Source: Fibrobacteria bacterium
GTDB taxonomy: Bacteria; Fibrobacterota; Fibrobacteria; UBA11236
Direction of reading: 5' to 3'
Assembly (NCBI GenBank): GCA_043745805.1
Contig: JAYTSD010000018.1
Span: 1-17,146 of the forward strand
Length of the DNA stretch: 17,146 nt
Under the pieces are notes generated by a model. It ran no database searches, was not told where the DNA came from, and saw only the letters and a program-made list of their open reading frames with translations. Below, piece after piece: positions 1 through 14,686 of the stretch (position 1 is its first letter; each line of letters starts with the position of its first letter). Position numbers and translations under genes: made by a program.

Positions 1-69
1 CAGCGACAACATTCAACTATCGGCCATGTTAGCCCAGCCGAGTTTGAGAAGAGGGCTTGTGTTGTTTAA
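1..69 (+). CDS. IS3-family transposase (OrfB/integrase core), C-terminal fragment, 5'-partial; not in the ORF track
   Basis: Frame 1 reads QRQHSTIGHVSPAEFEKRACVV*, matching the conserved IS3 OrfB tail R-x-H-S-x-(L/I)-G-x-x-(S/T)-P-x-E-(F/Y)-E. Confidence 0.85.
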   Translation, partial: QRQHSTIGHVSPAEFEKRACVV

Positions 70-99
70 CTAAATGTCCGTGAACAAGGGCGCAGATCA
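1..99 (+). mobile_element. Right end of an IS3-family insertion sequence (runs off the left edge of the window)
   Basis: A transposase C-terminus at 1..69 is followed by CTAAATGTCCGTGAACAAGGGCGCAGATCA, ending in CA at 99. Its reverse complement starts TGATCTGCGCCC, in the style of IS3-family 5'-TG...CA-3' terminal inverted repeats. The element cuts the neighbouring HNH ORF at 99/100. Confidence 0.85.
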
Positions 100-299
100 G
101 GGACTCCTTTATTTCCTCGAATCGGAATATAGGCGTCATATATATGGCGATGACGAGTTACAACTACATCTACTGTTTGTCCAAAGAGATCATTGCATTC
201 TTTACAAACTTTATATACGTGAATACATCCACCTATGCTTTCAGGAATAACATGTTCATCGCTTGATGGTTTTTCGAGGTCACAAAAAATGCAGATCAC
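100..299 (-). pseudogene. HNH endonuclease (HNH_5-like, zinc-finger type) interrupted by the IS3 element
   Basis: Motif CIFC-x7-DEHVIPESIGG-x7-CKECN-x2-FG. The likely start is GTG at 299 (MICIFC), with GGAAAG just upstream. The last ~10 residues of ORF 66..335 (DLRPCSRTFS) are read from the IS inverted repeat. Confidence 0.75.
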
Positions 300-468
300 T
301 GTATACTTTCCATTCGTTCTCTCAACTCCCGCCAATCAAACACTAGCAACAAATTCCAAACCCATCTTCATACATTTTGCTTACAAATGATTAATAAACG
401 AGTAATAATGTCACATAAATCATGACTAATAGGAAAAATTGGAGAAACCTAAAATTTTACAGGCAGAC

Positions 469-697: not shown

Positions 698-2929
698 TTA
701 TTCAACTTCACTAAACACAGCATCTTCAACATCATTTTCATTCGAATTTGATTTCACCGTCGCAGCATCTTCCACTTCCGCATTGGCAAAATTAAAAGTG
801 AAATCCTCATTATGAAAATCCACTTTTAAATGCGCGCCAGAGCGTAGCTTGCCGCCGATAATCAAACGGCTTAAAGGATTTTCCAAACGCGTTTGAATGA
901 AGCGATTAATAGGGCGCGCTCCATATTGCGGATCATAGGAAAGCTTGCCAATGGCCGCCGTGGCTGCGGAAGTGATTTCCGAAGTAATACCGCGCTCTTT
1001 CAAGCGCTTGGCTAAATCGCGGAAGCGTAAAGCGGCGATGCCGGTTAGCTCTTGTAAGTTTAAGGCTTGGAAAACCAGAATCTCGTCAATGCGATTGATA
1101 AATTCCGGACGGAAAAATTCTTTAATCTCCGGCATTAAATCTTGCAGGGTAACAGATTTGTGACCTTCTGATTCCTGTAATTGGAATTTATGCGCACCAA
1201 TATTGGAGGTCATGACTATGATGGTGTTTTTAAAATTAACCGTGCGACCTTGCGAATCGGATAAACGACCATCATCCAAAACTTGTAATAGCACATTGAA
1301 TACATCAGGATGCGCTTTTTCCACTTCGTCGAATAGCACTACGGAATAAGGTTGTCGACGCACTGCTTCGGTGAGTTGTCCGCCTTCTTCATAGCCTATA
1401 TATCCTGGAGGTGCGCCTATGAGTTTGGACACGGAATGTTTTTCCATGAACTCGCTCATGTCGAGACGTACGACATATTCTTCATTGTCGAATAAAAATT
1501 CCGCAATGGCTTTGGTTAATTCGGTTTTGCCAACGCCGGTAGGACCAAGGAATAAAAAGGATCCAATGGGACGCCCTTCGCGGCCTAGTCCAGAGCGATT
1601 GCGCAAGATAGCATCGGCCAAAGCATGAATGGCATTCTTTTGGCCTACTACGCGTTTAGCTAAATGCTCGGGGAGATTCAGCAATTTATCTTTCTCTTCT
1701 TCTTTCAAGCGTGTCACCGGAATGCCTGTCCAACGCGCCACTACTTCGGCGATTTCGTCTTCGGTTACTTCTTCGTGAAACACCAAATCATTTCCCTTAG
1801 CATTTGCAGAATCCTTGCTGGCATGGGTTTGTAAAGCTTCCAGTTTTTTTTCAGCTTCGGGCAAGGTTTTATATTTCAATTCAGCTGCGCGATTTAAATC
1901 GTATTCGGCTTCGGCTTTTTCGATTTTCTTTTTGATTTGATCAAGCTCTGCTTGTTGCTTCCGCACTTTTTGAATATGCTTGACTCTTTCATCCCATTGC
2001 TTTTGAATGGCTTCAGTTTGATGCGTTAACGATTCGATTTCTTCACGTAAATTCACCAAACGTTTTTTGCTAGCATCGTCCTTTTCCAATTTCAAAGCTT
2101 TCTCTTCGATTTTGAATTGCAATAGTTTACGGCTTAAAGAATCTAATTCTTCGGGCATGGTATCCAATTGCGTTTTCACTTTAGCAGCCGCTTCGTCCAT
2201 TAAGTCAATGGCCTTATCGGGTAAAAATCTATCCGCTATATAACGCTGCGAAAGTTTAACCGCGGCCACAATGGCATTGTCTTGAATGCGCACGCCATGA
2301 TGATGATCAAAGCGTTCTTTGATACCGCGCAAAATGGATATGCTGTCTTCCACGCTCGGTTCTGAAACCATCACTTGCTGAAAGCGTCTTTCCAAAGCTG
2401 CATCTTTTTCAATATGCTGTTTGTATTCATTTAGAGTTGTTGCGCCTATGCAATGCAAATCGCCGCGCGCTAATTTGGGTTTGAGTAAATTACCCACATC
2501 CATAGAACCTTCGGTTTTGCCTGCACCGACTATGGTATGCAATTCATCGATGAAGAGCAAAGTGTTACCGTGATCATTTTCTAATTCTTTGAGCACGGCT
2601 TTGAGGCGTTCTTCAAATTCACCTCTATATTTTGCACCAGCGATTAAAGCACCCATGTCGAGGCTATAGATTTTTTTTCCTTTTAAAGATTCGGGTACAT
2701 CGCCGCGCACAATGCGATGAGCGAGGCCTTCGACAATGGCGGTTTTACCGACGCCGGGTTCGCCAACCAGTACAGGATTGTTTTTGGTTTTGCGTGAGAG
2801 AATACGAATCACGCGGCGGATTTCTTCTTCACGGCCGATAACAGGATCGAGTTTCCCATCACGTGCTTGTTGCACTAATTCTTGCCCGTATTTTTCTAAT
2901 ACTTTGTCTTCTGTATCTGCACTTTGCAT
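698..2929 (-). CDS. clpB: ATP-dependent disaggregase ClpB, lacking the N-terminal Clp-repeat domain
   Basis: Two AAA+ modules (GEPGVGKT / LFIDELH and GPTGVGKT / [10 protein letters not shown]), pore loops [11 protein letters not shown] and GAPPGYIGY, and a long coiled-coil middle domain (PEELD...[10 protein letters not shown]). RBS AGGAG precedes ATG 2929. Confidence 0.93.
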
Positions 2930-3237: not shown

Positions 3238-4665
3238 TTAAAGCCCAGGTATGCGAATAAGCCAACCTAAGGAAAGTACAAGCGCAACCGATACCGTTAA
3301 AACCAAGATATAATTCCAGCGCAATTGATGTCCGGCAACGCTTTGATTTTCACTTACCGCATCCATCCAAATGGACTTCACCAAACGGAAATAAAAGAAG
3401 AAGGAAATTAAACTGGCGACTACGGCAACACCCACAGCACAACTCCCAAAGTGAGGAAGACTTGGTCCAAGGCGTAAAGCTTCTAATACCACACTAAACT
3501 TGGCGGTAAATCCAGCGGTGAGTGGAATGCCTGCATAGCTCAGTAACAGCACGGTTAACCCTAAAGCGAGCAGTGGATGTTTTTTTCCTAAGCCTTGCAA
3601 ATCGCTGATTTCATCTACATCGGCTTTGGCTGAACCTAAGGCCATAAAAGCAGCGAATGTTCCAATAGTGGTAATGCCATAAGCGCCTAAATAGAAGAGC
3701 GTAGCTGAAGCCGATTCAGATAATACACCGATTAAAATAAAGCCTGCATTAACTACGGCGGAGTAGGCTAATAAACGTTTTAAATTGGTTTGCAATAAAG
3801 CTTGCAAGTTACCCAACAATACCGAAAGGATTATGGCTACGATTAATGCAGGCTTCCATGTTTCACCTAAAGCGCCAAAAGGTCCCCAAAGTAAAGTGGC
3901 TAACATTCCAAAAGCCGCGACTTTAACCGGCGCGGAAATAATCGAAAGGGAAGCGAGATTAGTGCCTTGATAAACATCGGGCAACCATGAATGAAAAGGT
4001 GCGGAGCCAGTTTTAAATAATAAAGCGCCTAAAATTAAAGCTAAGGAAATTTTTGCTAAACCGATATCACCGGCATGATTAGAGGCTAAGGCAATAGTGA
4101 GCTTGTCTTGAATAGCTTGTAGATGAATTTCGCCGGTGGCGCCATATAAAAAAGAAATGCCCAACAATAGTAATACGCTAGTAAACATTCCCAAAAGCAA
4201 GTATTTCAATCCCGCTTCATTAGAGCGCGCATCGCGGTGGCTAAAGCCTGCCAGTACATAGGATGGGATGGATACTAATTCATAAGCAATGAATAAGGTT
4301 GCGAGATCACCGGCTAAAGATAAATGCGCAATGCCTAAGGCGGTAGCTAAAACAACCATGCGAAAGTCGGTGGAGTGAATATGCACTTTCTCTAAATAGT
4401 CTTCCGAAAGTAATGTCGCTAAGGCCGCTAGGCTTAAAGCTAAGAAGGCCAGTACTTTGCCGATACTGGTAACACGTATGGAACCTCCAAAATATTCGGA
4501 ACCAATAGGTAAAAAACGCCACATAAAATAAGTGCTTAAGCTTATGGCAACAAAAGCAATGGGGCCTGAGAGACGTTCTTTTTCCCAAGGTTTAAGCGCT
4601 GCTAAAATCAGTAGAAGCATAAACCCGCTGACTAGTGGGATTTGGGAAAGCATATAATTGTTCAT
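3238..4665 (-). CDS. nuoN: NADH-quinone oxidoreductase subunit N
   Basis: Antiporter-like membrane protein with LFIAYELVSIPSYVL, SNEAGLKY, FKTGSAPFHSWLPDVYQG, QTNLKRLLAYS and AGIPLTAGFTAKF. Last gene of the J-K-L-M-N series. Confidence 0.95.
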   Translation of the reverse strand: MNNYMLSQIPLVSGFMLLLILAALKPWEKERLSGPIAFVAISLSTYFMWRFLPIGSEYFGGSIRVTSIGKVLAFLALSLAALATLLSEDYLEKVHIHSTDFRMVVLATALGIAHLSLAGDLATLFIAYELVSIPSYVLAGFSHRDARSNEAGLKYLLLGMFTSVLLLLGISFLYGATGEIHLQAIQDKLTIALASNHAGDIGLAKISLALILGALLFKTGSAPFHSWLPDVYQGTNLASLSIISAPVKVAAFGMLATLLWGPFGALGETWKPALIVAIILSVLLGNLQALLQTNLKRLLAYSAVVNAGFILIGVLSESASATLFYLGAYGITTIGTFAAFMALGSAKADVDEISDLQGLGKKHPLLALGLTVLLLSYAGIPLTAGFTAKFSVVLEALRLGPSLPHFGSCAVGVAVVASLISFFFYFRLVKSIWMDAVSENQSVAGHQLRWNYILVLTVSVALVLSLGWLIRIPGL

Positions 4666-6182
4666 GGAAAGCCTGCTGCGTTTTTAATGAGCAGTATTTT
4701 TTCAATAGGTTGTATGAGCAGCATAGGATATAAACCTAATAGCAACCAAACTGCGCCGAGTGCTAAAGCCATAGAGGTTTCGAAAGTGCTAAAGTCAGCG
4801 GCTTGCTCAATAACGGAGCCTTCAACGGGTTTGCCAAAGAAAATATTATGAAATCCTCGAAACATGGCCGCAGCGACTAATAAAGCACCGATAGAGGCAA
4901 AGAAAACCAAATAAGGCGAAGCTTGAAAGGCTGCATAGTAAACCAAAATTTCACCGGCAAAATTGCTAAGTCCAGGCAAACTGGCTGAAGCAAATAAAGC
5001 CAAGAGCAGAATGGCGGTTAAACGGAATTGTGATTTGCGTAAACCACCCGTTGCATAGATTAGTGGGCTATTCCCATTTTTATTAATGCGTGCATCAAAA
5101 GCAAATAGCGCAGTCATAATCAAACCATGATTGAATACTTGGAAAATGGCGGCGGTTAAGGCCGTACCTGCAAAGTTACCTTGAGCCGAGAATACCGATA
5201 AAGCGATTAAACTTAAATGGCCGAGCGAAGAGTAAATAAGAATGTCCAACCACTTTTGCGCCGAAAGGCAAAGGAAGGCAGCATAGACTACGCCAGCCAC
5301 ACAAAGCCATTGCAATGGCAAGGCAAAAGTGCGGCATTCTTCGGGAAAGCCAGGGGCCAAGATAAGGATAAAACCATAAGCCCCCATTTTAGACATAAGG
5401 GCCGAAAGTACGGTTCTACAAGCCGCTGGAGCAACTGTGTAAGTGTCACGTAACCAACCATGAAATCCTAGTAGAGGTAACTTCACGGCGAAAGCAATTA
5501 AAAAACCGCCGAATACCCAATGGCGATAAATGGCGGGCATTTGATTAAGTGTAGCTGATATACCATCAATACCAGGATCTCTTCCCGCCGCCGCACATAG
5601 CCAAATAATGGACAATAACATGGGCAAGCTACCCAATAAAGTGACTAAGCAAAAACGCATTAAAGCAGAATAAACTTTGGCTTTGTCTTCCTTATCTTCC
5701 GCTTGGCCAAACATTCCAATCCAAAAATAAGCACCGATTAAAGCGAGTTCCCAAAAGAAATACAATAGGATTAAGCTTTGCGAAACAAATACACCGAATA
5801 AACTAAAGAGGAGTAAATTCGCGGAGATATAATAACCACGGCTGTAAACTCGCGCTTTGTCGCGCAACCAAATAAAAATGAGTGGTAAGCTAATGCCCAT
5901 CAATAATAAAAAGGGGGTATTACGCGCATCGAGATAAACGGAAGGTTGAAAACGTAAACCTGTACTCGCTAAAGACAAGCCTTCGCTCGTACTTTCCAAA
6001 TGTAATCCCGAGTGAATGCTAAGCACACTTAAGAAAATTAATAATAAACCATATACACAATGAAAGGCCATGGCCAAGCGTGCTTGATCCTTCGCTTGAT
6101 TTTTATATACCGCGTGAAACACTATGCCCAGTATGGGCCAAATTAATGAAACGACGAATAGGCTATAGAGGAATGATTCCAA
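4662..6182 (-). CDS. nuoM: NADH-quinone oxidoreductase subunit M
   Basis: Motifs YFFWE, FAVKLPLLGFHGWL, KMGAYG, FNHGL and LPGLSNFAGE. ATGA overlap with nuoN. TTG start just after the nuoL stop. Confidence 0.93.
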   Translation of the reverse strand: MESFLYSLFVVSLIWPILGIVFHAVYKNQAKDQARLAMAFHCVYGLLLIFLSVLSIHSGLHLESTSEGLSLASTGLRFQPSVYLDARNTPFLLLMGISLPLIFIWLRDKARVYSRGYYISANLLLFSLFGVFVSQSLILLYFFWELALIGAYFWIGMFGQAEDKEDKAKVYSALMRFCLVTLLGSLPMLLSIIWLCAAAGRDPGIDGISATLNQMPAIYRHWVFGGFLIAFAVKLPLLGFHGWLRDTYTVAPAACRTVLSALMSKMGAYGFILILAPGFPEECRTFALPLQWLCVAGVVYAAFLCLSAQKWLDILIYSSLGHLSLIALSVFSAQGNFAGTALTAAIFQVFNHGLIMTALFAFDARINKNGNSPLIYATGGLRKSQFRLTAILLLALFASASLPGLSNFAGEILVYYAAFQASPYLVFFASIGALLVAAAMFRGFHNIFFGKPVEGSVIEQAADFSTFETSMALALGAVWLLLGLYPMLLIQPIEKILLIKNAAGFP

Positions 6183-6185
6183 ATG

Positions 6186-8075
6186 TTAACCCTTCGCTAA
6201 GAAAACAATGAGGAGGAATATGGCCACTAAAAACCCCAAAGCATATTGCTGGGCATTGCCCGTTTGATAGCGACGTATTAAATAAGAAGAACCAAATCCC
6301 AACCAGCCAGCAAGCTTTATACTACCAATAAAAATATTTTCCAAAATGAGACGTGAAAAAATTCCCAAAACTTTTAAAGGTTTCACAAAAATGTATTCGT
6401 ATAAATCATCGAAATAAAATTTGCGGGCAAGTGGACCGTATTGACCTAGGCTTAATTTCGGTAAACTTTCGCGGCGCTTAGCGCTGCTAAAAACGAAAAA
6501 GCAAATTCCCGCTAAAACCAAATTCAAAATGAGGAAAGGTAAAGCATGTGCAAAGGAAGGGCCTTCGGGTTGCTCCGTACCGCCAGTAATTGCAGAGTAA
6601 ATGAAACCTTTGCCGCCAAAGAGTGGGGTAGCGCTCAAATAACCGAATACTGGACCTACCACAATCAGAATACCCAGCACTAAACGAATACTAAGGGATT
6701 TTTCTTTAACAGGATGATGTGCATCTTCATGATAAGTTTTGTCGCCAGATAAATAACCGAGCAAACGGAAAAGGTAAAGAGCGGAAATGCATTCCACCAC
6801 TACGACTATCCAGTACACCAAGTCCGCAGAAAGCGAAAAACCAAAACCGGAAAGATGACCTTCTTTAATGCTTTCTAAAATAAGTTCCTTGGAAAAAAAT
6901 CCGGCGGCGAGATAAGGAATTAAACCCGCTCCGCCTATACAGCCTACCCAAAAAGCAATGCGTGTTACTGGTAGCTTCTTTAATACCCCACCCAAATGAT
7001 GCACATCTTGTTCATGATGCGCTGCGAATATCACCGAACCAGCGGCCAAGAATAATAAAGCCTTAAAGCAAGCATGGCCGAATAAATGCATCATAGCCGA
7101 ACCAGGAGCTAATACGGAAAGTGCCAAAAACATCAAGGATAAATTCGAGAGCGTAGAATAGGCCAAAATCTTTTTGATATCGGTTTGCGTTAAAGCCATT
7201 AATGCGCCAAGCACCAAGGTAATTAAGGCGCAAATCACCATGACAAAATTGGCTTCCGGCGAAAGAGTGAAAACGCCTTGTAAACGCATCACTAAATAAA
7301 TACCTGCTGTAACCATAGTGGCCGCATGAATTAATGCAGAAACCGGAGTAGGGCCGGCCATAGCATCGGCTAACCATACATGCAAAGGAGCTTGAGCTGA
7401 TTTAGCAAATGCGCCACCGAGTATTAATAAAGCGCCCCAACCCGCATAACCTGTTTGGGTCGCTTGCGTAGAAATACCGACTAAGGAGGCCGTTCCGAAA
7501 TGGCCAAAGAGCGTAAATACGCCAAGTAAAAAAAGGATATCGCCAATGCGGTTCACAAAGAGCGCTCTAAAGGCGGCCAGCGGCACATCTTTCTCTTCCC
7601 AATAATGGCCAATCAACAAATAAGAACAAAGACCTACGCCTTCCCAACCTAAGAAAATCAAAACCAAATTATCGGCCAAAACCAAGATTAACATGGCGGT
7701 TACGAAGAGATTCAAGCTGGCAAAGAAACGGCTTTGTTCTTTATCATCACGCATGTAACCTACAGAATACAGGGTAATAAGCGCGCCGAAGCCGGAAACC
7801 AAAAGACACATGCATAAAGAAATGGAATCGAGTTTAAACGTAAAATCCGCTTGAAAGGCTTGCGTCGCAAGCCAAGGTCCAGTGGAAAATTCAATGACAT
7901 GATGCACATCACTAAATCCCAAAGCAAAAGCCAAAACTAAGGCAAAGGCCGCGCTTACAGCGGCAACAGCCACACTGCTCACCACATTATAAGGTAAACG
8001 TCTTCCAAATAAAGCTAATGCTAATGCGCCCAAGGCTGGGCAAACGGGGATAAGTAATAATAAAGCAGGAGACAT
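6186..8075 (-). CDS. nuoL: NADH-quinone oxidoreductase subunit L
   Basis: Motifs YSVGYM, GWEGVGLCSYLLIG, NRIGD, KSAQAPLHVWLADAMAGPTPVSALIHAATMVTAG, DIKKILAYST, HACFKALLFL, and a C-terminal FYFDDLY...QTGN lateral helix. Confidence 0.97.
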   Translation of the reverse strand: MSPALLLLIPVCPALGALALALFGRRLPYNVVSSVAVAAVSAAFALVLAFALGFSDVHHVIEFSTGPWLATQAFQADFTFKLDSISLCMCLLVSGFGALITLYSVGYMRDDKEQSRFFASLNLFVTAMLILVLADNLVLIFLGWEGVGLCSYLLIGHYWEEKDVPLAAFRALFVNRIGDILFLLGVFTLFGHFGTASLVGISTQATQTGYAGWGALLILGGAFAKSAQAPLHVWLADAMAGPTPVSALIHAATMVTAGIYLVMRLQGVFTLSPEANFVMVICALITLVLGALMALTQTDIKKILAYSTLSNLSLMFLALSVLAPGSAMMHLFGHACFKALLFLAAGSVIFAAHHEQDVHHLGGVLKKLPVTRIAFWVGCIGGAGLIPYLAAGFFSKELILESIKEGHLSGFGFSLSADLVYWIVVVVECISALYLFRLLGYLSGDKTYHEDAHHPVKEKSLSIRLVLGILIVVGPVFGYLSATPLFGGKGFIYSAITGGTEQPEGPSFAHALPFLILNLVLAGICFFVFSSAKRRESLPKLSLGQYGPLARKFYFDDLYEYIFVKPLKVLGIFSRLILENIFIGSIKLAGWLGFGSSYLIRRYQTGNAQQYALGFLVAIFLLIVFLAKG

Positions 8076-8392
8076 TAGCGATGCTCTCCTAATTGCGCGA
8101 TGCGTTCGCGACCTATATCATGATGATTTTTAAAGAGCACAATAATCATGGATAAACCGATAGCGGCTTCTACGGCGGCAACACCGATGGATAGCATATA
8201 TAAGTAATGGCTCCATTCTTGATTGCCAAAGCGGAAATAATTGAAGGCCACCATACTTAAATTCACGCCATTTAAAATCACTTCTACGGAAAGCAAAATT
8301 AAAATTAAACTTTGACGACGCACTAAACCAAAGCTGCCGATGAGAACCAAAAGTATGGAAAGCGTTAAGCAATTTGCAAGATTGAAATGCAT
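8075..8392 (-). CDS. nuoK: NADH-quinone oxidoreductase subunit K
   Basis: 105 aa with three hydrophobic helices. Both conserved glutamates are present (LSVEVILNG; AAVEAAIGL). TAATG overlap with nuoL. Confidence 0.93.
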   Translation of the reverse strand: MHFNLANCLTLSILLVLIGSFGLVRRQSLILILLSVEVILNGVNLSMVAFNYFRFGNQEWSHYLYMLSIGVAAVEAAIGLSMIIVLFKNHHDIGRERIAQLGEHR

Positions 8393-8407
8393 CTAGTCCT
8401 TTAAGCC

Positions 8408-8989
8408 TTAAGGGGCCCGCATGCCTTTGCGGCGGGAAAAGTTCAGGGCGGCAATAATGCCAACTAAAATGAGAAAGGAAATTAATTCAAAAGAAACGGT
8501 TAAAGGATTATTCATCGGATCACGGAATAACAAATCGGCGATGGAGGCGATGGAACCAAAATCGGGTTTAGTTACAGGAACAGTTTCAATTTGATAAGCC
8601 ACATGGCGCACTAAAGGAATTAAGCCTGTGCCAATGAAAACCAAAATGGCAAAAGCAAAAATCGAAAAATTAAGTGTGGGCTTGGGTATATTTTCGCTTG
8701 GATTATTGGGATCAAAGGCAGGGATTTCACCGCCGGTAGGCATGGGATTTATCATCATGATCACAAAAGTAAAGAGCATCATGATTGCGCCAGCATAGAC
8801 AAGAATTTGTAATACACCAACTAATGGGGCCTGCAGCAGTACGTATATCATGGAGGTGGGTAAAAAAGAAATGATTAAAAGTAAGGTAGAGCGAACTGGA
8901 TTTTTAATCAGCACTACGCCTAGCGAACTAATCACTATGAGGATAAATGAGAGGGTAAAAACTATGTGAACCAAAGCCGAGTCTTGCAC
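8408..8989 (-). CDS. nuoJ: NADH-quinone oxidoreductase subunit J
   Basis: Motifs KNPVRS, QILVYAGAIMMLFTFVIMM and FELISFLILVGIIAA. GTG start with AAGGTGG upstream. Confidence 0.93.
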   Translation of the reverse strand: MQDSALVHIVFTLSFILIVISSLGVVLIKNPVRSTLLLIISFLPTSMIYVLLQAPLVGVLQILVYAGAIMMLFTFVIMMINPMPTGGEIPAFDPNNPSENIPKPTLNFSIFAFAILVFIGTGLIPLVRHVAYQIETVPVTKPDFGSIASIADLLFRDPMNNPLTVSFELISFLILVGIIAALNFSRRKGMRAP

Positions 8990-9078: not shown

Positions 9079-9101
9079 AAAAGGCCTAGACTAGACCTTT
9101 T
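9079..9101 (-). terminator. Putative intrinsic terminator ending the DUF3570 operon
   Basis: Minus strand AAAAGGTCTA-GTC-TAGGCCTTTT: a stem with one G-U pair and a short U-tract, 8 nt after the stop at 9110. Confidence 0.55.
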
Positions 9102-9109
9102 CGCCGGAC

Positions 9110-10258
9110 TTAAAAGGAAAATTTGATCTGGGTTTCCATTACATTGGAAGAATATTTCAAAGTATCGAAATAGCGGAAATACATTATATCCCAAGAACTG
9201 TTTTGCAGAAAGTCTAAATCTGGGTTTCCTTTAGCAAAACCACCCAAATAATATGACAAATTAGCTCCGGCATAATGCGCATCATGTGCTTGCAATTTAG
9301 GATCGCGAGAATAATAGCCATTTTTTCCAGGTGAGGAGACGAAATAGGCAGCAGTTTGGGTATAGTAGCGATACTCCGGACTAAAAATGACATGGTCCGT
9401 GATGTACTTATTGAAAATGAATTTGAAAGTATGTGATATTATTTCCCAGTCATCTTGGTAGTAGCGATAATGCCCGATTACGGATCCGTTTAAGTCGGAA
9501 AGAAAATGACTCATTTCCAGCCATCCCGCAGAGCGATAGCGCTCGGTAGGTGCATTACCAGTGACATAATCAACAATTACCGGATTTATTGCATTTGGCA
9601 TGGCTATTTTTTTATAAGGATCGCTTAGAAAACCCGAATCTAATCGTTCATCTACTCCCATGCGCATGAAAGTCGTTGGCGAAAGTAATTGCGTTAATCC
9701 AAAAGAGAGTTGAAACACTTCTTTATTATTTTCAAGCATTTGTTCATCAGAAATAATTTCTCCCACAATGTCCATATTATATTGGCCACGTAAGGACAAG
9801 GTTAAATTCTTTTCGAAAAGCTCTTGTGTCAAAGTAGCGATTCCCGATTGGCTTTGATAATCCTCTTCTTGGCTATTGTAATAATTAAGTGCGAAGCGTG
9901 TATTGTCTCCTAGGCCTTGTTCTAGGCCCACAATAAATTGTCCGCGATTTTTTTTATACTCCCCTGTGCCGATCACATTACGCTTGGGACGTGATGCCGA
10001 AGAAATAACATCCAGTGAAGCGCTGGTTAGTAAAGGTTGGCCCACTTGATCCAATTCAATGTCGAGCAAAAGCGTGGTATGTTTATAAAGGGATTTTGCT
10101 AAAGAAAAAGAGGTAGTAAAAATATTGACTTGGCTATTATCTGCAACATAGTACGTATTATAGGCTAATTGATCCGCATATAAACTTGCGTGCAGAGATA
10201 ATAAGAAGATTAGTAATACGGATAGCTTTTTTAAAAACTTAAGCCTTATTTGGAGCAA
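9110..10258 (-). CDS. DUF3570-family putative outer-membrane beta-barrel protein
   Basis: Signal peptide (..HASLYA) and family-style motifs DVISSAS, SQEEDYQS, GFLSDPY, YRYYQDDWEIISHT and YRYYTQTAAYF. C-terminal IKFSF beta-signal. Adjacent to DUF4266 and TlpA genes. Confidence 0.85.
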   Translation of the reverse strand: MLQIRLKFLKKLSVLLIFLLSLHASLYADQLAYNTYYVADNSQVNIFTTSFSLAKSLYKHTTLLLDIELDQVGQPLLTSASLDVISSASRPKRNVIGTGEYKKNRGQFIVGLEQGLGDNTRFALNYYNSQEEDYQSQSGIATLTQELFEKNLTLSLRGQYNMDIVGEIISDEQMLENNKEVFQLSFGLTQLLSPTTFMRMGVDERLDSGFLSDPYKKIAMPNAINPVIVDYVTGNAPTERYRSAGWLEMSHFLSDLNGSVIGHYRYYQDDWEIISHTFKFIFNKYITDHVIFSPEYRYYTQTAAYFVSSPGKNGYYSRDPKLQAHDAHYAGANLSYYLGGFAKGNPDLDFLQNSSWDIMYFRYFDTLKYSSNVMETQIKFSF

Positions 10259-10458
10259 CCGCAGCCCCCGCCAATTCCAGTTCCACCACCCATACTGCCT
10301 TCACGTGTTGAAAAGAGTTTATCTTCCAAGCTTTGTTTGGTTCCGTGTCCGCTAGCATCCATAATCGGGTCGGCAAGTTTTTCGCGTTCATAGGGCTTAA
10401 CCATGGCGCAACCCATAAGTAATATACAGGTAACGGTAACAAATAAGGCGTATTTCAT
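10246..10458 (-). CDS. DUF4266-family small lipoprotein with a C-terminal GGGCGC motif
   Basis: Lipobox LMGC, followed by VKPYEREKLADPIM...REGSMGGGTGIGGGCGC, the hallmark of DUF4266. ATGA coupling to the upstream TlpA gene. Confidence 0.9.
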   Translation of the reverse strand: MKYALFVTVTCILLMGCAMVKPYEREKLADPIMDASGHGTKQSLEDKLFSTREGSMGGGTGIGGGCGCSK

Positions 10459-10955
10459 TTTACTCCCACCTTTGGGCTTATTAAAAGAGACATCTTTTTT
10501 TCAAAGCTTTCTAAGGATTCTGAACTATACCCGTCTATTCTTTCACTTATTTTTCCTTGCGGATCGATGAGGATTAAAGTAGGCATACCTTTGATATCAA
10601 AAAATTCGGCTACCGATTTTTTTGCATCGTGCAAATAGACTAGATTAGCAGGCATTTTACTTAAAAAATCTTCGGCCTTTTTATTGTTTTCATCTACACT
10701 TAAGGCCAAAATATTTAATTGCGGGAAATGGTTTTTGATGCGGCCTAATTCCGGTAAAGATTTTTTACAGGGCGGACACCAGCTTGCCCAAAAATCTAAT
10801 AACACCCATTGCCCATTAAATCTTTGCAAACTCACGAACCCATTTTTTTGCAAAGTGGGAAGTTCAAAAGCAGGCACAGATTTATGCAAAGGAGCCTCGG
10901 CGCGCAAGGCCGAGACGCATAGTAACATTAAAGAGACGATACGGAAATGTTTCAC
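10455..10955 (-). CDS. Exported TlpA/ResA-family thiol-disulfide reductase
   Basis: Signal peptide, LLDFWASWCPPCK active site, ILALSVD, and cis-Pro loop GMPTLILIDPQG. GTG start. Confidence 0.92.
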   Translation of the reverse strand: MKHFRIVSLMLLCVSALRAEAPLHKSVPAFELPTLQKNGFVSLQRFNGQWVLLDFWASWCPPCKKSLPELGRIKNHFPQLNILALSVDENNKKAEDFLSKMPANLVYLHDAKKSVAEFFDIKGMPTLILIDPQGKISERIDGYSSESLESFEKKMSLLISPKVGVK

Positions 10956-10957
10956 AA

Positions 10958-13207
10958 TTACCGGGGTCGAGCTGAGTGGAAACCAGAGCGATTAGAATAT
11001 TGTACACCCATGTCCATCCATTCTACTAAGGCGAGCAGATCTTTATTTTTGGTATTAAATACGTTAATGTGCGAAGTGGTAGAATCTTTTTCCCATAGAG
11101 AAGAATGATCGAATGAGCTAAGACGGAAAGCATCTTTCGACCCATTCAATTGTTTATTATATAGAACCCAAGCTAAAGGACTTTGTCGGGCTCCATTTTG
11201 AGAAGCATATTCAATACTAGTTGCTTTAGCTGTTTTATAGCCACCACTCTTAGTTAAGCGTTCATAAACCGTAGACGTTCCTCTTTGATTATAAATGGCG
11301 GTGTCGATGGTTTCTTCCAAAAGCAAATTGCCACCCTCCGTTGCGGCTTTGGCCAAGCTATGACAGGTATTGCAACGCGCGTCTAAAATGGCTTGGAGTG
11401 AATTTGTAAATTTTTTAGTGGAATCTTTGGTATTGTAAAAATCTACGGTATCATTACGTAAGGCCGCATGCTCCGTAACTTTTTGCGCATTAGCAAAGCT
11501 GGATAAATATTTATCCACCGCTTCGGTGCTGGCGGCAATATTCACAACATGGCCCGCCTCATTAATTTTTAAATGGCTAATATCTTTATCTTTATCTCTA
11601 TCGCCATGACATCCGGTACACATACGTCTTTCACCTGGCATGACTTGAATCCATTGCAATTGATTAACAAGCATTAAGCCATTTTCATCCAAGGTTTGCA
11701 TATGCAAAGAGTGATTAGCCGGAACTTCTACCGAAAAAGATCCATCGGCACGAATATCTCCATAACCAATCACTCGTTGTTTTTCAAAATTCGTTTCCCC
11801 AATTTCACCGCCACGAATATTACCATTAACGGGCAACGGAATAGCTTCCAGAATGCGTAAATATTTCGCTTGGCCTTTGCTGCCATCCGAATTTATAAAA
11901 GTGCTATCGGGTTTTAATTGTCCATCTCCCACAGCCATGCGGCTATAGACACTGGCATCAAAAAACATCCCTGTACTGGCGCTGGACTGTAACCCATCTT
12001 TTACGGAAAGCTCGGATTCAAAATGTTTAGGCACCACGCGGCTTTGTACGACCACGGGATCATAATCATTCATATCCCCATTATCATAAATGCGTTTCAA
12101 ATTTTTTCCGTCTATGTCCATTACATATAAACCATAATTCACGACCGTGCCCCCATTGCGATCGCCCACGGGATGCGGAGACATTGCTACTAATAATTTT
12201 TCTACTCCATTGTCCAAAATAGGATAGGGAGTTTTAAATTCCATCGCGGCCACTTGATCTTGCATGGTATTGTTAAAAGGCGCATCAGATGGGGTAATAA
12301 TGGTGGGAGGTTGAGTCACCTTGGACGCATCAAATATGCAAATTGCACCGCCTTCTCCATGCGAAGTTCTTTCCATTAAGGAGGAAACAATTCCCCCATC
12401 CCTTAACTCGCGCGCTTCCAAGTAGGTGCGGCTGCCGCTATTAGTAGGTGCATCGGCTCCATAATAAACAAAAAGGCCAGTACCATCGGGGTTTAAGCTA
12501 AAGAGAGGGATTTTATTAGGATTGCCAAGATGATCCCATTTACTGAAAATAATCTTTCCGCTGGAATGCACCCAAGGATTAATATCATGACTTTGATTAA
12601 AAGAAATTTGCCGAATATTGATTAAAACGCCAGCGGATCCTCTTTCGCCTATAGTTAACAGGGGCGATACTCTTCTTTCATATTCATCGACAATTTGGGA
12701 ACGGGTAGAGGTAAAGACAAAATGATTATCGTCAATATAGGCAGGGTTCATATCATCGCCTTGTTCGGGACTCGTGAGTTCCACCAAATTAGTTCCATCT
12801 ACATTCATTTCAAATAAATGAAAATGTCCACTTCCTTGTTTACGCATGGCAAAGAGAATTTTTTTCCCATCAAAAGAAATTTCAGGATCAACCGCCGCAC
12901 CCCATTTGTTTTTATCGGTTTCGGAACCCCGCGTATATTGCTGAGTTAAATTAACCAAGACTCCAGTGGGAGAAATCGGGGACAATGAAACGAGATCCGT
13001 ACCCGGATAAAATTCGTCGACATGACTGGCCATAGCTATATTGCGATCATTCGCTGTGCTAGGCTCTTGCACAAAAACAATTTTACCTTGTTCACCCGAA
13101 ACGCGTAACATTTCATCCGCCGGATTAAGGCAAGAATTGAAGAAGAAGATAGCCGGACACAATAGGGCAATGGCGAAGCTTGCTGGAATAGTGTGATTGG
13201 TTTTCAT
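10958..13207 (-). CDS. HzsA-like (hydrazine synthase alpha-related) dihaem c lipoprotein with an N-terminal TolB/PD40-like beta-propeller
   Basis: The likely start is ATG 13207 (RBS AGGAGAGG) rather than 13252. Lipobox-like FFNSC. Propeller repeats DPEISFDGKKILFAM, HLFEMNVDGTNL and LFSLNPDGTG. HZS-alpha middle-domain style segment IRADGSFSVEVPA..LHMQTLDENG..WIQVMPGERRMCTGCH. Haem motifs CTGCH (11606..11620) and CNTCH (11360..11374). Confidence 0.8.
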   Translation of the reverse strand: MKTNHTIPASFAIALLCPAIFFFNSCLNPADEMLRVSGEQGKIVFVQEPSTANDRNIAMASHVDEFYPGTDLVSLSPISPTGVLVNLTQQYTRGSETDKNKWGAAVDPEISFDGKKILFAMRKQGSGHFHLFEMNVDGTNLVELTSPEQGDDMNPAYIDDNHFVFTSTRSQIVDEYERRVSPLLTIGERGSAGVLINIRQISFNQSHDINPWVHSSGKIIFSKWDHLGNPNKIPLFSLNPDGTGLFVYYGADAPTNSGSRTYLEARELRDGGIVSSLMERTSHGEGGAICIFDASKVTQPPTIITPSDAPFNNTMQDQVAAMEFKTPYPILDNGVEKLLVAMSPHPVGDRNGGTVVNYGLYVMDIDGKNLKRIYDNGDMNDYDPVVVQSRVVPKHFESELSVKDGLQSSASTGMFFDASVYSRMAVGDGQLKPDSTFINSDGSKGQAKYLRILEAIPLPVNGNIRGGEIGETNFEKQRVIGYGDIRADGSFSVEVPANHSLHMQTLDENGLMLVNQLQWIQVMPGERRMCTGCHGDRDKDKDISHLKINEAGHVVNIAASTEAVDKYLSSFANAQKVTEHAALRNDTVDFYNTKDSTKKFTNSLQAILDARCNTCHSLAKAATEGGNLLLEETIDTAIYNQRGTSTVYERLTKSGGYKTAKATSIEYASQNGARQSPLAWVLYNKQLNGSKDAFRLSSFDHSSLWEKDSTTSHINVFNTKNKDLLALVEWMDMGVQYSNRSGFHSARPR

Positions 13208-13232
13208 GACCTCTCCTGGTTTGAGTGAATGT

Positions 13233-13949
13233 TTAGTAGTAATACTGAACACCGATTAAGAAAATGAAGTTTTGTGTGATATAAGGTTTGGTTGTAATTT
13301 TTTGGGAATAAATATGATCACGCAACCCATAATTCAAAGCCCAGCAATCTTTTTTGCCTAAACCTGGCAATTTGGTGCGCTGCCCAAAACCTAATACGCC
13401 ACCAATATTAGATGATCCGCCTTGATAAAGCGCGGTAATACCACCGATGAAATAAGGAAAATGGCCGCCACTATACATTTCACCGGAATAGCCATCCCAG
13501 CTCATGCTATAACCGGCTAAGGCTTCGAGGGTAACCAATAGGTTATTATCAAAAATATCGGCTTTATGCACACTTTCCGAAAAACTACTTTGCAATCGTC
13601 CTATACCGGCCGTGCCTTCAAAAAAGAAAGCCGCGCGCGCCGGAAAATAATCCCATAAAAAACTGGCATAAGGATTAGCGCCTAATACTTCAGCATTATA
13701 AATCCCCAAGAATAGGCCATAACTATTAGAATAACTTTTTGCAATTTTTTCCGTGACGATATTGCGCTTAGCTTCGGGCATTGGGCGCGATTCCACCACT
13801 TCGGTTTTTTCGGGAAGTGGCACCGTATAGGCGGTATCCATATCTTTTTCTCTTTGCGGTGGCTTATTGGATTTTGCCGAGGCGCCTTTTTTAGGAGCTG
13901 CAAAAGCCATGACGGATAAGGTTAAGCAACCGATAATGATTTTATCCAA
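13233..13949 (-). CDS. Putative outer-membrane beta-barrel protein with a low-complexity N-terminal extension
   Basis: The likely start is TTG 13949, overlapping the upstream stop and giving signal peptide MDKIIIGCLTLSVMAFA. Amphipathic Gly/aromatic strands (PYFIGGIT, NIGGVLGFG, WALNYGLRDHIY) and C-terminal IGVQYYY beta-signal. The start position is uncertain (the ORF track gives 13976). Confidence 0.72.
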   Translation of the reverse strand: MDKIIIGCLTLSVMAFAAPKKGASAKSNKPPQREKDMDTAYTVPLPEKTEVVESRPMPEAKRNIVTEKIAKSYSNSYGLFLGIYNAEVLGANPYASFLWDYFPARAAFFFEGTAGIGRLQSSFSESVHKADIFDNNLLVTLEALAGYSMSWDGYSGEMYSGGHFPYFIGGITALYQGGSSNIGGVLGFGQRTKLPGLGKKDCWALNYGLRDHIYSQKITTKPYITQNFIFLIGVQYYY

Positions 13950-14463
13950 AAACAAAAATAACCCCCAAACTAGCACCTTGAAAAATCACGAGCTTATTCT
14001 GATCAAAATTATTTTTAAAGCGAGAAAATAATTGTTTACTTTCAAAGCGAATGCCGACTTTGGAATTGATATAATAACGCAATCCACCCCCAAAGTTTAA
14101 ACCAATAGTACTTATCGTTTGACTGCCTACGGCATTTTCAGGAACGGTAAAAAACAAGCCTGCACCCACAATACCATAAGGAACAATTTTTGGAGAGGAG
14201 GCGAGATTCACTACTAAATTAGCCGTGAGCGGATAAGTGGTTGCGGTGCGTCCGACAATCTCTTCGGCGGCCATTTCCAAAGCGAGCGAACTATAATTCA
14301 TCGCTGCACGTATTCCTAATGCGCCTCCACCACCCATGAATCCAGCATGAGGAGAAATTTCAAAATTAACAAAGGACGGTTTTTGTTCGAGTTCATTACC
14401 ATACGTTAGCGAGAGCATAAAAAATGAAATGAAAATGAAAGAAGGAAAGGATTTTTTTTTCAT
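13942..14463 (-). CDS. Small OmpA-like (probably 8-stranded) outer-membrane beta-barrel protein
   Basis: Signal peptide plus strands FEISPHAG, IVPYGIVGAG, GLNFGGGLRYY, GIRFESK and terminal LGVIFVFG. Confidence 0.8.
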   Translation of the reverse strand: MKKKSFPSFIFISFFMLSLTYGNELEQKPSFVNFEISPHAGFMGGGGALGIRAAMNYSSLALEMAAEEIVGRTATTYPLTANLVVNLASSPKIVPYGIVGAGLFFTVPENAVGSQTISTIGLNFGGGLRYYINSKVGIRFESKQLFSRFKNNFDQNKLVIFQGASLGVIFVFG

Positions 14464-14472
14464 GTGTTCTTA

Positions 14473-14491
14473 ATTATAGCCCCGCTGTCAA
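14473..14491 (-). promoter_or_regulatory. Candidate -10 box (TATAAT) 9 nt upstream of the first start codon of the envelope operon
   Basis: Minus strand TTGACA-GCGGGGC-TATAAT-TAAGAACAC-ATG. There is no Shine-Dalgarno sequence, and the TTGACA spacing is non-canonical (7 nt). Confidence 0.35.
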
Positions 14492-14686
14492 GCATAAGAA
14501 AGCGAAACGTCTGTGATTTCAAAAAAGATTATGCTCTCGCAAATTTCAAAAATCCTTGCAAGCTGAATGCACGCCTCGCTTTGTGGGGAATATTCGTAGA
14601 AAAGGGCGTAATTAAAAAAGAAACTCATCTGTTTAGTCCTATATCTAAAGACTATAATTTCAAAATTCATTTTCCGAAGGATATAT

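Follow-up and report, generated by a model that had tools for sequence, protein, structure and literature searches.

Genes for DUF3570 proteins have been described in clusters with genes for ApbE, a thioredoxin-like protein and DUF4266 (a CXC protein), often together with DsbD, and the function of these clusters was left uncertain (PMC8238504). ApbE flavinylates the DUF3570 protein of Chlorobium luteolum at two [S/T]GA[S/T] motifs (Meheust et al. 2021, eLife, PMC8238504). Published work on homologues of hydrazine synthase (HZS) centers on alpha-subunit genes located beside fused beta-gamma genes, often with an FG-GAP protein (PMC12758564; PMC10732223). Here, we describe a six-gene operon from contig JAYTSD010000018.1 of a Fibrobacteria bacterium (assembly GCA_043745805.1), in which a DUF3570/DUF4266/thioredoxin cassette is joined to an HZS alpha-like (HzsA-like) lipoprotein and two small outer membrane proteins (OMPs). 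The contig (C18) makes up the whole 17,146-bp stretch that was analyzed, referred to below as the window, and belongs to a 3.95-Mb genome of 50 contigs that is 99% complete. We regard the operon as a flavinylation-associated extracytosolic electron transfer cluster, its new features being a heme end-module and a structural model. An earlier annotation made from the letters of the sequence alone (the original prediction) had noted the association of DUF3570, DUF4266, a thioredoxin-like protein and ApbE, and this association is published (PMC8238504).

Gene content of the operon

The open reading frames (ORFs) are given in order of transcription, with lengths in amino acids (aa) and positions in nucleotides (nt) of the window.

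13942..14463, minus strand: OMP1, a small outer membrane beta-barrel of 173 aa bearing a signal peptide (PF13505 OMP_b-brl, 32.9 bits, cut-off 28.7)
13233..13976, minus strand: OMP2, an exported protein of 247 aa whose N-terminal half is of low complexity and whose C-terminal half is barrel-like; its start codon is uncertain
10958..13207, minus strand: HzsA-like diheme lipoprotein, 749 aa from M16 (PF18582 HZS_alpha, 73.3 bits, cut-off 26.6)
10455..10955, minus strand: TlpA/ResA-like periplasmic thioredoxin, 166 aa, with a WCPPC motif (CPPC at nt 10767-10778; AhpC-TSA 74.5, Thioredoxin_8 71.1 and Redoxin 64.3 bits)
10246..10458, minus strand: DUF4266 lipoprotein, 70 aa (PF14086, 62.3 bits, cut-off 27)
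9110..10258, minus strand: DUF3570, a 382-aa outer membrane beta-barrel (PF12094, 113.7 bits, cut-off 25)

Six co-oriented minus-strand ORFs running from 14463 down to 9110 had been predicted and were found, and the assignments to HZS_alpha, DUF3570, DUF4266, Redoxin and, for OMP1, OMP_b-brl all lie above the Pfam cut-offs. TIGR04565, suggested for OMP1 and OMP2, was not borne out, with scores of 20.3 and 21.7 bits, far under the cut-off of 60. Each of the six products carries a signal peptide or a lipobox, as had been claimed; these signals were read from the sequences by eye and comprise type-I-like signal peptides on OMP1, the TlpA-like protein and DUF3570, and lipoboxes on the HzsA-like protein (FFNSC) and DUF4266 (LLMGC). 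Junctions of at most 25 nt were likewise predicted, which holds for four of the five (a 25-nt gap between OMP2 and the HzsA-like start at M16, then a 2-nt gap, a 4-nt overlap and a 13-nt overlap) but not for OMP1/OMP2, where the longest ORFs overlap by 35 nt.

Of the three barrels originally predicted, that of OMP1 is supported by PF13505 and that of DUF3570 by a structural model, whereas the case for OMP2 is a language-model lead. OMP2 has no Pfam match, and its nearest ESM Atlas clusters are named outer membrane beta-barrel (score 0.96; PF13505 on 31% of members). OMP1 and OMP2 were considered as paralogues, which was rejected as BLASTP revealed no detectable similarity between them (E value, 1.3). 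The TlpA-like protein falls below the NCBIfam cut-offs for both the ResA subfamily (78.9 of 170 bits) and the TlpA equivalog (57.4 of 230 bits), and on these scores its TlpA/ResA membership is at the family level only.

Conservation of the gene set across phyla

One genome per species was scanned with an alignment of the HzsA-like protein (A1), which returned 76 loci. The 59 loci with full-length HzsA-like orthologues (L013-L071) formed the set for synteny counts; by label, 18 are from Fibrobacterota, 14 from Calditrichota, 8 from Ignavibacteriota/"Chlorobi" and 16 from Bacteroidota (including 6 "Chitinophagales" and one Reichenbachiella), with 3 other or unlabeled. Comparison of the six window proteins with all ORFs of these loci using phmmer revealed the order OMP1-OMP2-HzsA-DUF4266-DUF3570 on one strand in 44 of the 59 loci. 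In 14 of the 15 incomplete loci, the missing genes would fall beyond a contig end. The same order in this many orthologous loci places the arrangement far beyond chance, and it persists between phyla in which the proteins are about 50% identical. In each of the 53 related loci that extend to this position, an OMP1 orthologue lies 5' of OMP2, and OMP2 is conserved adjoining the HzsA-like gene. Of the 44 complete loci, 29 also contain TlpA, mostly between the HzsA-like gene and DUF4266, and TlpA is a dispensable member of the set; DUF4266 and DUF3570 are always retained.

The original prediction had named a lack of co-occurrence of the HzsA-like gene with DUF3570, DUF4266 and TlpA in other genomes as the result that would count against it, and the 44 loci clearly show the reverse. 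Its claim that the six genes form a unit is upheld by conservation, in order, across at least three phyla. The pairing also recurs independently in a gammaproteobacterial locus (L072), where TlpA, DUF4266 and DUF3570 come after a distant HZS_alpha protein. We consider it very probable that the gene set is one functional unit.

Neighboring ORFs of the 59 loci were clustered to find further conserved members. A protein of approximately 750 aa with NHL repeats, a FlgD-Ig domain and a type IX secretion system (T9SS) C-terminal sorting domain is encoded directly 3' of DUF3570 in 30 loci from Ignavibacteriota, Bacteroidota and Calditrichota (for example, L032:13603-15864, plus strand). A protein of approximately 200 aa without a family match is encoded directly 5' of OMP1 in 26 loci and shares a weak local match with OMP1 (E value, 2e-4). 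The window itself has neither gene. ApbE, DsbD and nuo genes were not found among the conserved neighbor clusters of the 59 loci.

The HzsA-like diheme lipoprotein

The HzsA-like ORF reaches position 13252 (764 aa). Its start was placed at M16 (nt 13207) from the alignment with 21 homologues and from the 749-aa form in the protein collection. The protein comprises a TolB-like propeller, an HZS_alpha middle domain and a C-terminal cytochrome c domain, and its lipobox Cys is conserved among homologues. Two heme-binding motifs in one lipoprotein, as originally predicted, are present and both are invariant among the aligned homologues (ORF numbering).

11606..11620, minus strand: first CXXCH, C545-T-G-C-H549, corresponding to heme alpha-I of HZS; invariant in 22 of 22 sequences
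11360..11374, minus strand: second CXXCH, C627-N-T-C-H631, corresponding to heme alpha-II; C627, C630 and H631 invariant

The A1 profile matches the HZS alpha subunit of Kuenenia stuttgartiensis (5c2v_A) over its full length, from the propeller to the C terminus (E value, 8.1e-33), the first and second motifs aligning with CSGCH and CAMCH, respectively. An AlphaFold2 (AF2) model of the HzsA-like protein had a predicted local distance difference test score (pLDDT) of 73.7 and a predicted template modeling score (pTM) of 0.76. Used as a Foldseek query, it retrieved 5c2v_D and 5c2v_A first (E value, 2.9e-31; template modeling [TM] score, 0.62; 20% identity), followed by TolB propellers. As modeled, the protein has the full HZS alpha fold.

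In HZS, the proximal ligand of heme alpha-I is Tyr591, four residues past the CXXCH histidine (PMC12607021). At that position, Asp or Glu occurs in all 22 aligned family members, and the profile aligns "d" there against 5c2v_A. The HzsA-like protein scored 120.5 bits against NF052339, the HZS alpha equivalog, short of the cut-off of 800, and no beta or gamma HZS genes lie beside the HzsA-like gene within the window. Because of the low equivalog score, the Asp/Glu at the Tyr591 position and the lack of beta and gamma genes nearby, the protein is, judged by its sequence, not a hydrazine synthase.

PF18582 is present in a single copy in the genome. Among the candidates scored, 375 HzsA-like homologues were found at an E value of <=0.001; the best 120, at 50 to 58% identity, are all unnamed or "hypothetical," and the few named sources are Fibrobacteria, Calditrichaceae and Bacteroidota metagenome-assembled genomes (MAGs). 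Bacteroides thetaiotaomicron has a PF18582 match above the cut-off and no DUF3570; a genetically tractable organism thus has a different member of the HZS_alpha family.

The DUF3570 barrel and its flavinylation-type motif

An AF2 model of DUF3570 (pLDDT, 87.1; pTM, 0.81) has 16 long strands, and Foldseek searches with it returned outer membrane barrels only, OccD/OccK, FadL and BcsC among them, at TM scores of 0.34 to 0.54. DUF3570 is accordingly modeled as a 16-strand outer membrane barrel. An alignment of 35 DUF3570 sequences (A2), which includes 32 orthologues besides the window copy, revealed one strict [S/T]GA[S/T] motif in 32 of the 32 orthologues, located in the long loop that joins strands 3 and 4 (consensus, TAVTGATRP). 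The first published flavinylation site aligns to non-motif sequence in A2. OMPs have periplasmic termini and an even number of strands, and the strand 3-4 loop would lie at the extracellular end of the barrel or be folded into its lumen.

9992..10003, minus strand: position of the flavinylation-type motif, S86-S87-A88-S89, in the strand 3-4 loop; A88 is invariant in A2

The window copy is the only one of the 33 orthologues with Ser in place of Gly in this motif (SSAS). A five-residue insertion private to the window gives a second, tandem T78-S79-A80-S81 (window 9992-10027, minus strand). The window DUF3570 therefore has only S-S-A-S and T-S-A-S, the strict [S/T]GA[S/T] motif being absent, compared with the two motifs of the published protein. 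The codons of the window motif are tct tcg gca tca; a change from Gly to Ser needs two base changes, and so SSAS is not a read error.

DUF4266 as a predicted plug of DUF3570

DUF4266 has a glycine-rich C-terminal tail ending in GGGCGCSK, with CGC at nt 10255-10263. Across 35 sequences, the invariant residues are the lipobox C17 and, in the tail, G64, G65, C66, G67 and C68. The original prediction had envisaged a physical coupling of lipoprotein and barrel, and for DUF4266 and DUF3570 this was supported by a controlled complex model, in which the mature proteins scored 0.67 against 0.01 for the best of three controls. Of 157 solved complexes, 116 reached the mark for this score, as did 2 of 215 mismatched pairs; this calibration is only rough here, as custom alignments were used. 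At least 74% of the contacts agreed between runs, and the partner pLDDT was at least 60.

The confident contacts on DUF3570 involve alternate, mostly polar residues of all 16 strands (the lumen face), together with several turns. In the model, contacts on alternate residues of all strands place DUF4266 inside the barrel. They cover 9 of the 18 invariant DUF3570 columns (hypergeometric P = 0.003) and 31 of the 74 that are invariant or nearly so (P = 3e-7), as well as 10 of the 12 invariant DUF4266 columns, C66 among them. That DUF4266 plugs DUF3570 is, on this model, a likely arrangement.

ApbE, DsbD and a second cassette in the genome

The genome encodes one ApbE, a lipoprotein on contig C46 followed by a NusG_II-domain gene and a 387-aa membrane-protein-like ORF, and one DsbD, on contig C40. 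A second DUF3570 cassette lies on contig C21.

C46:52806-55430 (L089 of genome G000), minus strand: ApbE lipoprotein, NusG_II gene and 387-aa ORF
C21:1115-3824 (L090 of genome G000), minus strand: second cassette, comprising a heme-motif lipoprotein, DUF4266, DUF3570 and a TlpA-like protein

The C21 lipoprotein (233 aa) contains CASCH, CLDCH and CX4CH motifs and has a weak TIGR01904 match, while the C21 DUF3570 (427 aa) has three GAS motifs. Both DUF3570 cassettes of the genome thus adjoin lipoproteins with c-type heme motifs. No FMN_bind domain and no NqrB/RnfD were identified in this 99% complete genome, leaving the two DUF3570 proteins as its only recognizable ApbE substrates.

Among 41 related genomes, DUF3570 was found in 24 and ApbE in 26; ApbE occurs in 23 of the 24 genomes with DUF3570 compared with 3 of the 17 without it. 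The HzsA-like gene is present in 19 of the 41, and 18 of these 19 have DUF3570, the exception having the gene at a contig end. As these genomes are kin, the counts are descriptive; they include one unpublished genome (G021), without which every count is lower by one. Several relatives have ApbE a few kilobases or less from another DUF3570 copy.

A proposed thiol-flavin-heme relay

The pairing that is fixed across phyla, its recurrence beside heme lipoproteins (C21 and L072) and the predicted DUF4266 plug led us to propose that the six genes encode one coupled, outer membrane-associated redox machine. As the DUF3570 family is an experimentally shown flavoprotein, the relay would run from thiol to flavin to heme and not from thiol to heme. 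The original prediction did not include the flavin on DUF3570, the dispensability of TlpA or the location of ApbE and DsbD elsewhere in the genome. DUF3570 would carry flavin mononucleotide (FMN) on the strand 3-4 loop, attached by the single ApbE of the genome. Reducing equivalents may pass from cytoplasmic thioredoxin through DsbD to TlpA, or another thioredoxin-like protein, and on to the CGC tail of DUF4266, from which electrons would move to the FMN on DUF3570 and then to the two c-type hemes of the HzsA-like lipoprotein. The latter would be the catalytic end, reducing a small substrate at or near the cell surface, with OMP1 and OMP2 anchoring or scaffolding it or admitting its substrate. 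The direction of electron flow, drawn from thioredoxin to heme because of the known reducing role of DsbD/TlpA systems, is the weakest step. A thioredoxin-driven chain suggests a reductive, non-energy-conserving task, which it would suit, such as detoxification of oxidants or nitrogen oxides or iron reduction for uptake. A possible location at the cell surface is hinted at by the T9SS-sorted partner that other phyla have. Acidic residues following the lipobox Cys, read by a rule for Bacteroidota, are a lead, and no more, toward surface exposure of the HzsA-like lipoprotein. Taken as a whole, the relay is the preferred reading but a tentative one, which falls just short of probable.

A number of observations weigh against it. 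Flavinylation of the window's own DUF3570 copy is unproven, given SSAS in place of the strict motif. In the DUF3570 model, confidence is lowest in the flavin loop (residues 75-100), where pLDDT falls below 50 at residues 80-88, and this loop lies outside the confident contacts with DUF4266. The best-supported DUF4266 contacts are at the barrel end assigned as extracellular by general OMP topology, which leaves the route of the periplasmic TlpA to the CGC tail unexplained. ApbE and DsbD are encoded outside the operon and outside all 59 neighborhoods, and TlpA is absent from 15 of the 44 complete loci, mostly those of Ignavibacteriota and Bacteroidota. Finally, L027 is the sole incomplete locus with room (2.6 kb) beyond the HzsA-like gene and both OMPs, and there an unrelated DUF3828 lipoprotein (L027:12480-13703, plus strand) stands in place of TlpA, DUF4266 and DUF3570. 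Several DUF3570 matches are present elsewhere in the genome (G019, L009) that was paired with L027 because its phmmer scores are identical.

A more specific form of the relay takes DUF3570 and DUF4266 as a heme-free outer membrane electron conduit, in which the lipoprotein with its glycine-rich CXC tail is threaded through the FMN-bearing 16-strand barrel and wires periplasmic thiol to a surface-located HzsA-like enzyme. We regard this conduit as doubtful.

Alternative explanations

If the genes were instead a maturation or repair module, TlpA and DUF4266 would keep the HzsA-like CXXCH cysteines reduced for heme attachment, in the manner of ResA/CcmG, and the barrel would merely dock the lipoproteins. 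This would fit the top NCBIfam match of TlpA, which is the ResA subfamily (78.9 bits, below 170), and the location of both DUF3570 cassettes of the genome beside lipoproteins with c-type heme motifs. It leaves the covalent flavin without a role, however, and TlpA is the member missing from 15 of the 44 complete loci, while DUF4266 and DUF3570 are always kept. The published cassette, moreover, consists of ApbE, DUF3570, a thioredoxin-like protein and DUF4266, with no cytochrome named in the available part of the report (PMC8238504). We consider a maturation module unlikely.

The model in which DUF4266 fills the DUF3570 lumen could also describe a gated channel. The HzsA-like enzyme would then be periplasmic, the plugged DUF3570 and the small OMPs would be uptake or efflux channels, and the CGC tail and flavin would form a redox-sensitive gate. 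DUF3570 does resemble the substrate-specific channels OccD/OccK, FadL and BcsC, but the Foldseek TM scores are low (0.34 to 0.54) and reflect a generic barrel fold, and the conserved DUF3570 residues line the plug interface and not an open pore. The published chemistry of the family is flavinylation (PMC8238504). A gated channel appears quite unlikely.

The full-length homology and fold match to HZS alpha, with both heme motifs kept, could be taken to indicate a nitrogen-oxide or hydroxylamine enzyme whose chemistry is akin to that of HZS, the cassette supplying electrons as the gamma-subunit hemes do in anammox. HZS-like enzymes have been proposed as a wider family with alternative substrates (PMC10732223). 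Set against this are the score of 120.5 bits where the NF052339 cut-off is 800, Asp/Glu for the proximal Tyr591 in 22 of 22 sequences and the lack of a beta- or gamma-like gene in the window; furthermore, no HZS alpha homologue has an experimentally confirmed function according to PMC12758564. This explanation is improbable.

That the genes are neighbors by descent only, conserved together and working separately, is very improbable, as L027, where the heme protein and OMPs lie apart from the cassette, stands against an order kept across phyla at about 50% identity, tight or overlapping coding junctions and the independent HZS_alpha/DUF3570 pairing in L072.

Operon boundaries and neighboring genes

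The operon was originally predicted to be bounded by a divergent promoter region and a terminator. Features at its boundaries and in the rest of the window are as follows.

14464..14686, no strand assigned: 223-nt divergent spacer between OMP1 and a plus-strand DUF3332 gene, a presumed promoter region
9079..9101, minus strand: terminator-like hairpin 3' of DUF3570 with ten pairs (3 G-C) and a T-rich tail, of a type not enriched over shuffled sequences
3238-8989, minus strand: nuoJ, nuoK, nuoL, nuoM and nuoN, directly downstream of the operon
698-2929, minus strand: two-AAA-domain Clp/Hsp100-type ATPase of 743 aa, after the HNH_5 ORF
66-335, minus strand: HNH_5 endonuclease ORF of 89 aa, near the contig start

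The divergent spacer exists, but no promoter-like sites were scored on its minus strand; across the scanned region, 24 such sites were found, compared with 18.9 in shuffles. Similarly, one A+T-rich hairpin is present at the other boundary, but terminator-like sites number 3 compared with 6.9 in shuffles. As the hairpin is weak and nuoJ starts 120 nt past the DUF3570 stop on the same strand, transcription may read through into nuoJ. The stretch is contained in four DNA sediment metagenome runs of one study, with no RNA run among the sequencing runs that contain it.

The window neighbors of the operon are nuoJ-N, DUF3332 and a Kelch protein. No nuoA-I genes were seen upstream of nuoJ-N in the contig, and two nuoH copies are located elsewhere in the genome (C20 and C1). 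Either the six-gene operon lies inside or before a split complex I set or nuoJ-N represent a third partial set. A functional link of the operon to complex I was set aside, and the nuo adjacency was treated as local because phmmer searches with nuoJ, nuoK and nuoL gave no match in any of 88 related loci.

Comparison with known systems

None of the papers examined from full-text searches describes the present arrangement or a complex of DUF4266 within DUF3570, although clusters of this kind may appear in the large supplementary table of PMC8238504. Among the closest described systems are the "DsbD systems" of that report, with which the operon shares three families in the same local order (PMC8238504). 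The orthologues of the window's DUF3570 keep a flavinylation-type motif, its DUF4266 keeps the C-terminal CXC, and ApbE and DsbD are both present in the genome. The differences are that ApbE and DsbD are in the cluster there and elsewhere in the genome here, that two motifs occur there and one here, degenerate (SSAS) in the window, and that a diheme HzsA-like lipoprotein and two small OMPs are joined here, which the available part of the report does not mention (PMC8238504).

With HZS alpha of K. stuttgartiensis (5C2V chain A), the HzsA-like protein shares the three-domain architecture, both CXXCH motifs and the full-length fold. It differs in being only about 20% identical, in having Asp/Glu at Tyr591, in being a lipoprotein and in having no beta or gamma partners. 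Both this clade and the HZS alpha homologues with fused beta-gamma genes are non-anammox HZS_alpha members, the present clade being set apart by its outer membrane barrels and flavin/thiol cassette. In MAGs of Fibrobacterota, Calditrichota, Ignavibacteriota and Bacteroidota, matches to hzsA-like genes should not be taken as anammox potential. Two published orphans, the flavinylated cassette and non-anammox HZS_alpha, are here fixed as partners across several phyla of sediment bacteria, and the DUF3570/DUF4266/thioredoxin cassette and HZS_alpha each give the other a testable partner.

LptD-LptE and MtrB-MtrA are outer membrane complexes of the plug-and-barrel type, and here too a second polypeptide is predicted inside an outer membrane barrel. 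The likeness is in layout only, as there is no sequence or family relation, the insert is approximately 54 residues with a CXC motif and no heme, and the 16-strand barrel would itself carry the cofactor. Porin-cytochrome systems (MtrAB/PCA), to which the original prediction had likened the operon, are defined by a multiheme periplasmic cytochrome inserted in a large outer membrane barrel, whereas the protein predicted in this barrel has no heme motif and the sole cytochrome has two. The plug-in-barrel model provides a structural hypothesis for how electrons might cross the outer membrane without multiheme cytochromes. If the relay is real, electrons would pass through the outer membrane as they do in MtrAB, and a heme-free conduit, if true, would parallel the MtrAB porin-cytochrome with flavin and thiol in place of heme, and the orphan HZS_alpha family would gain a first physiological electron donor.

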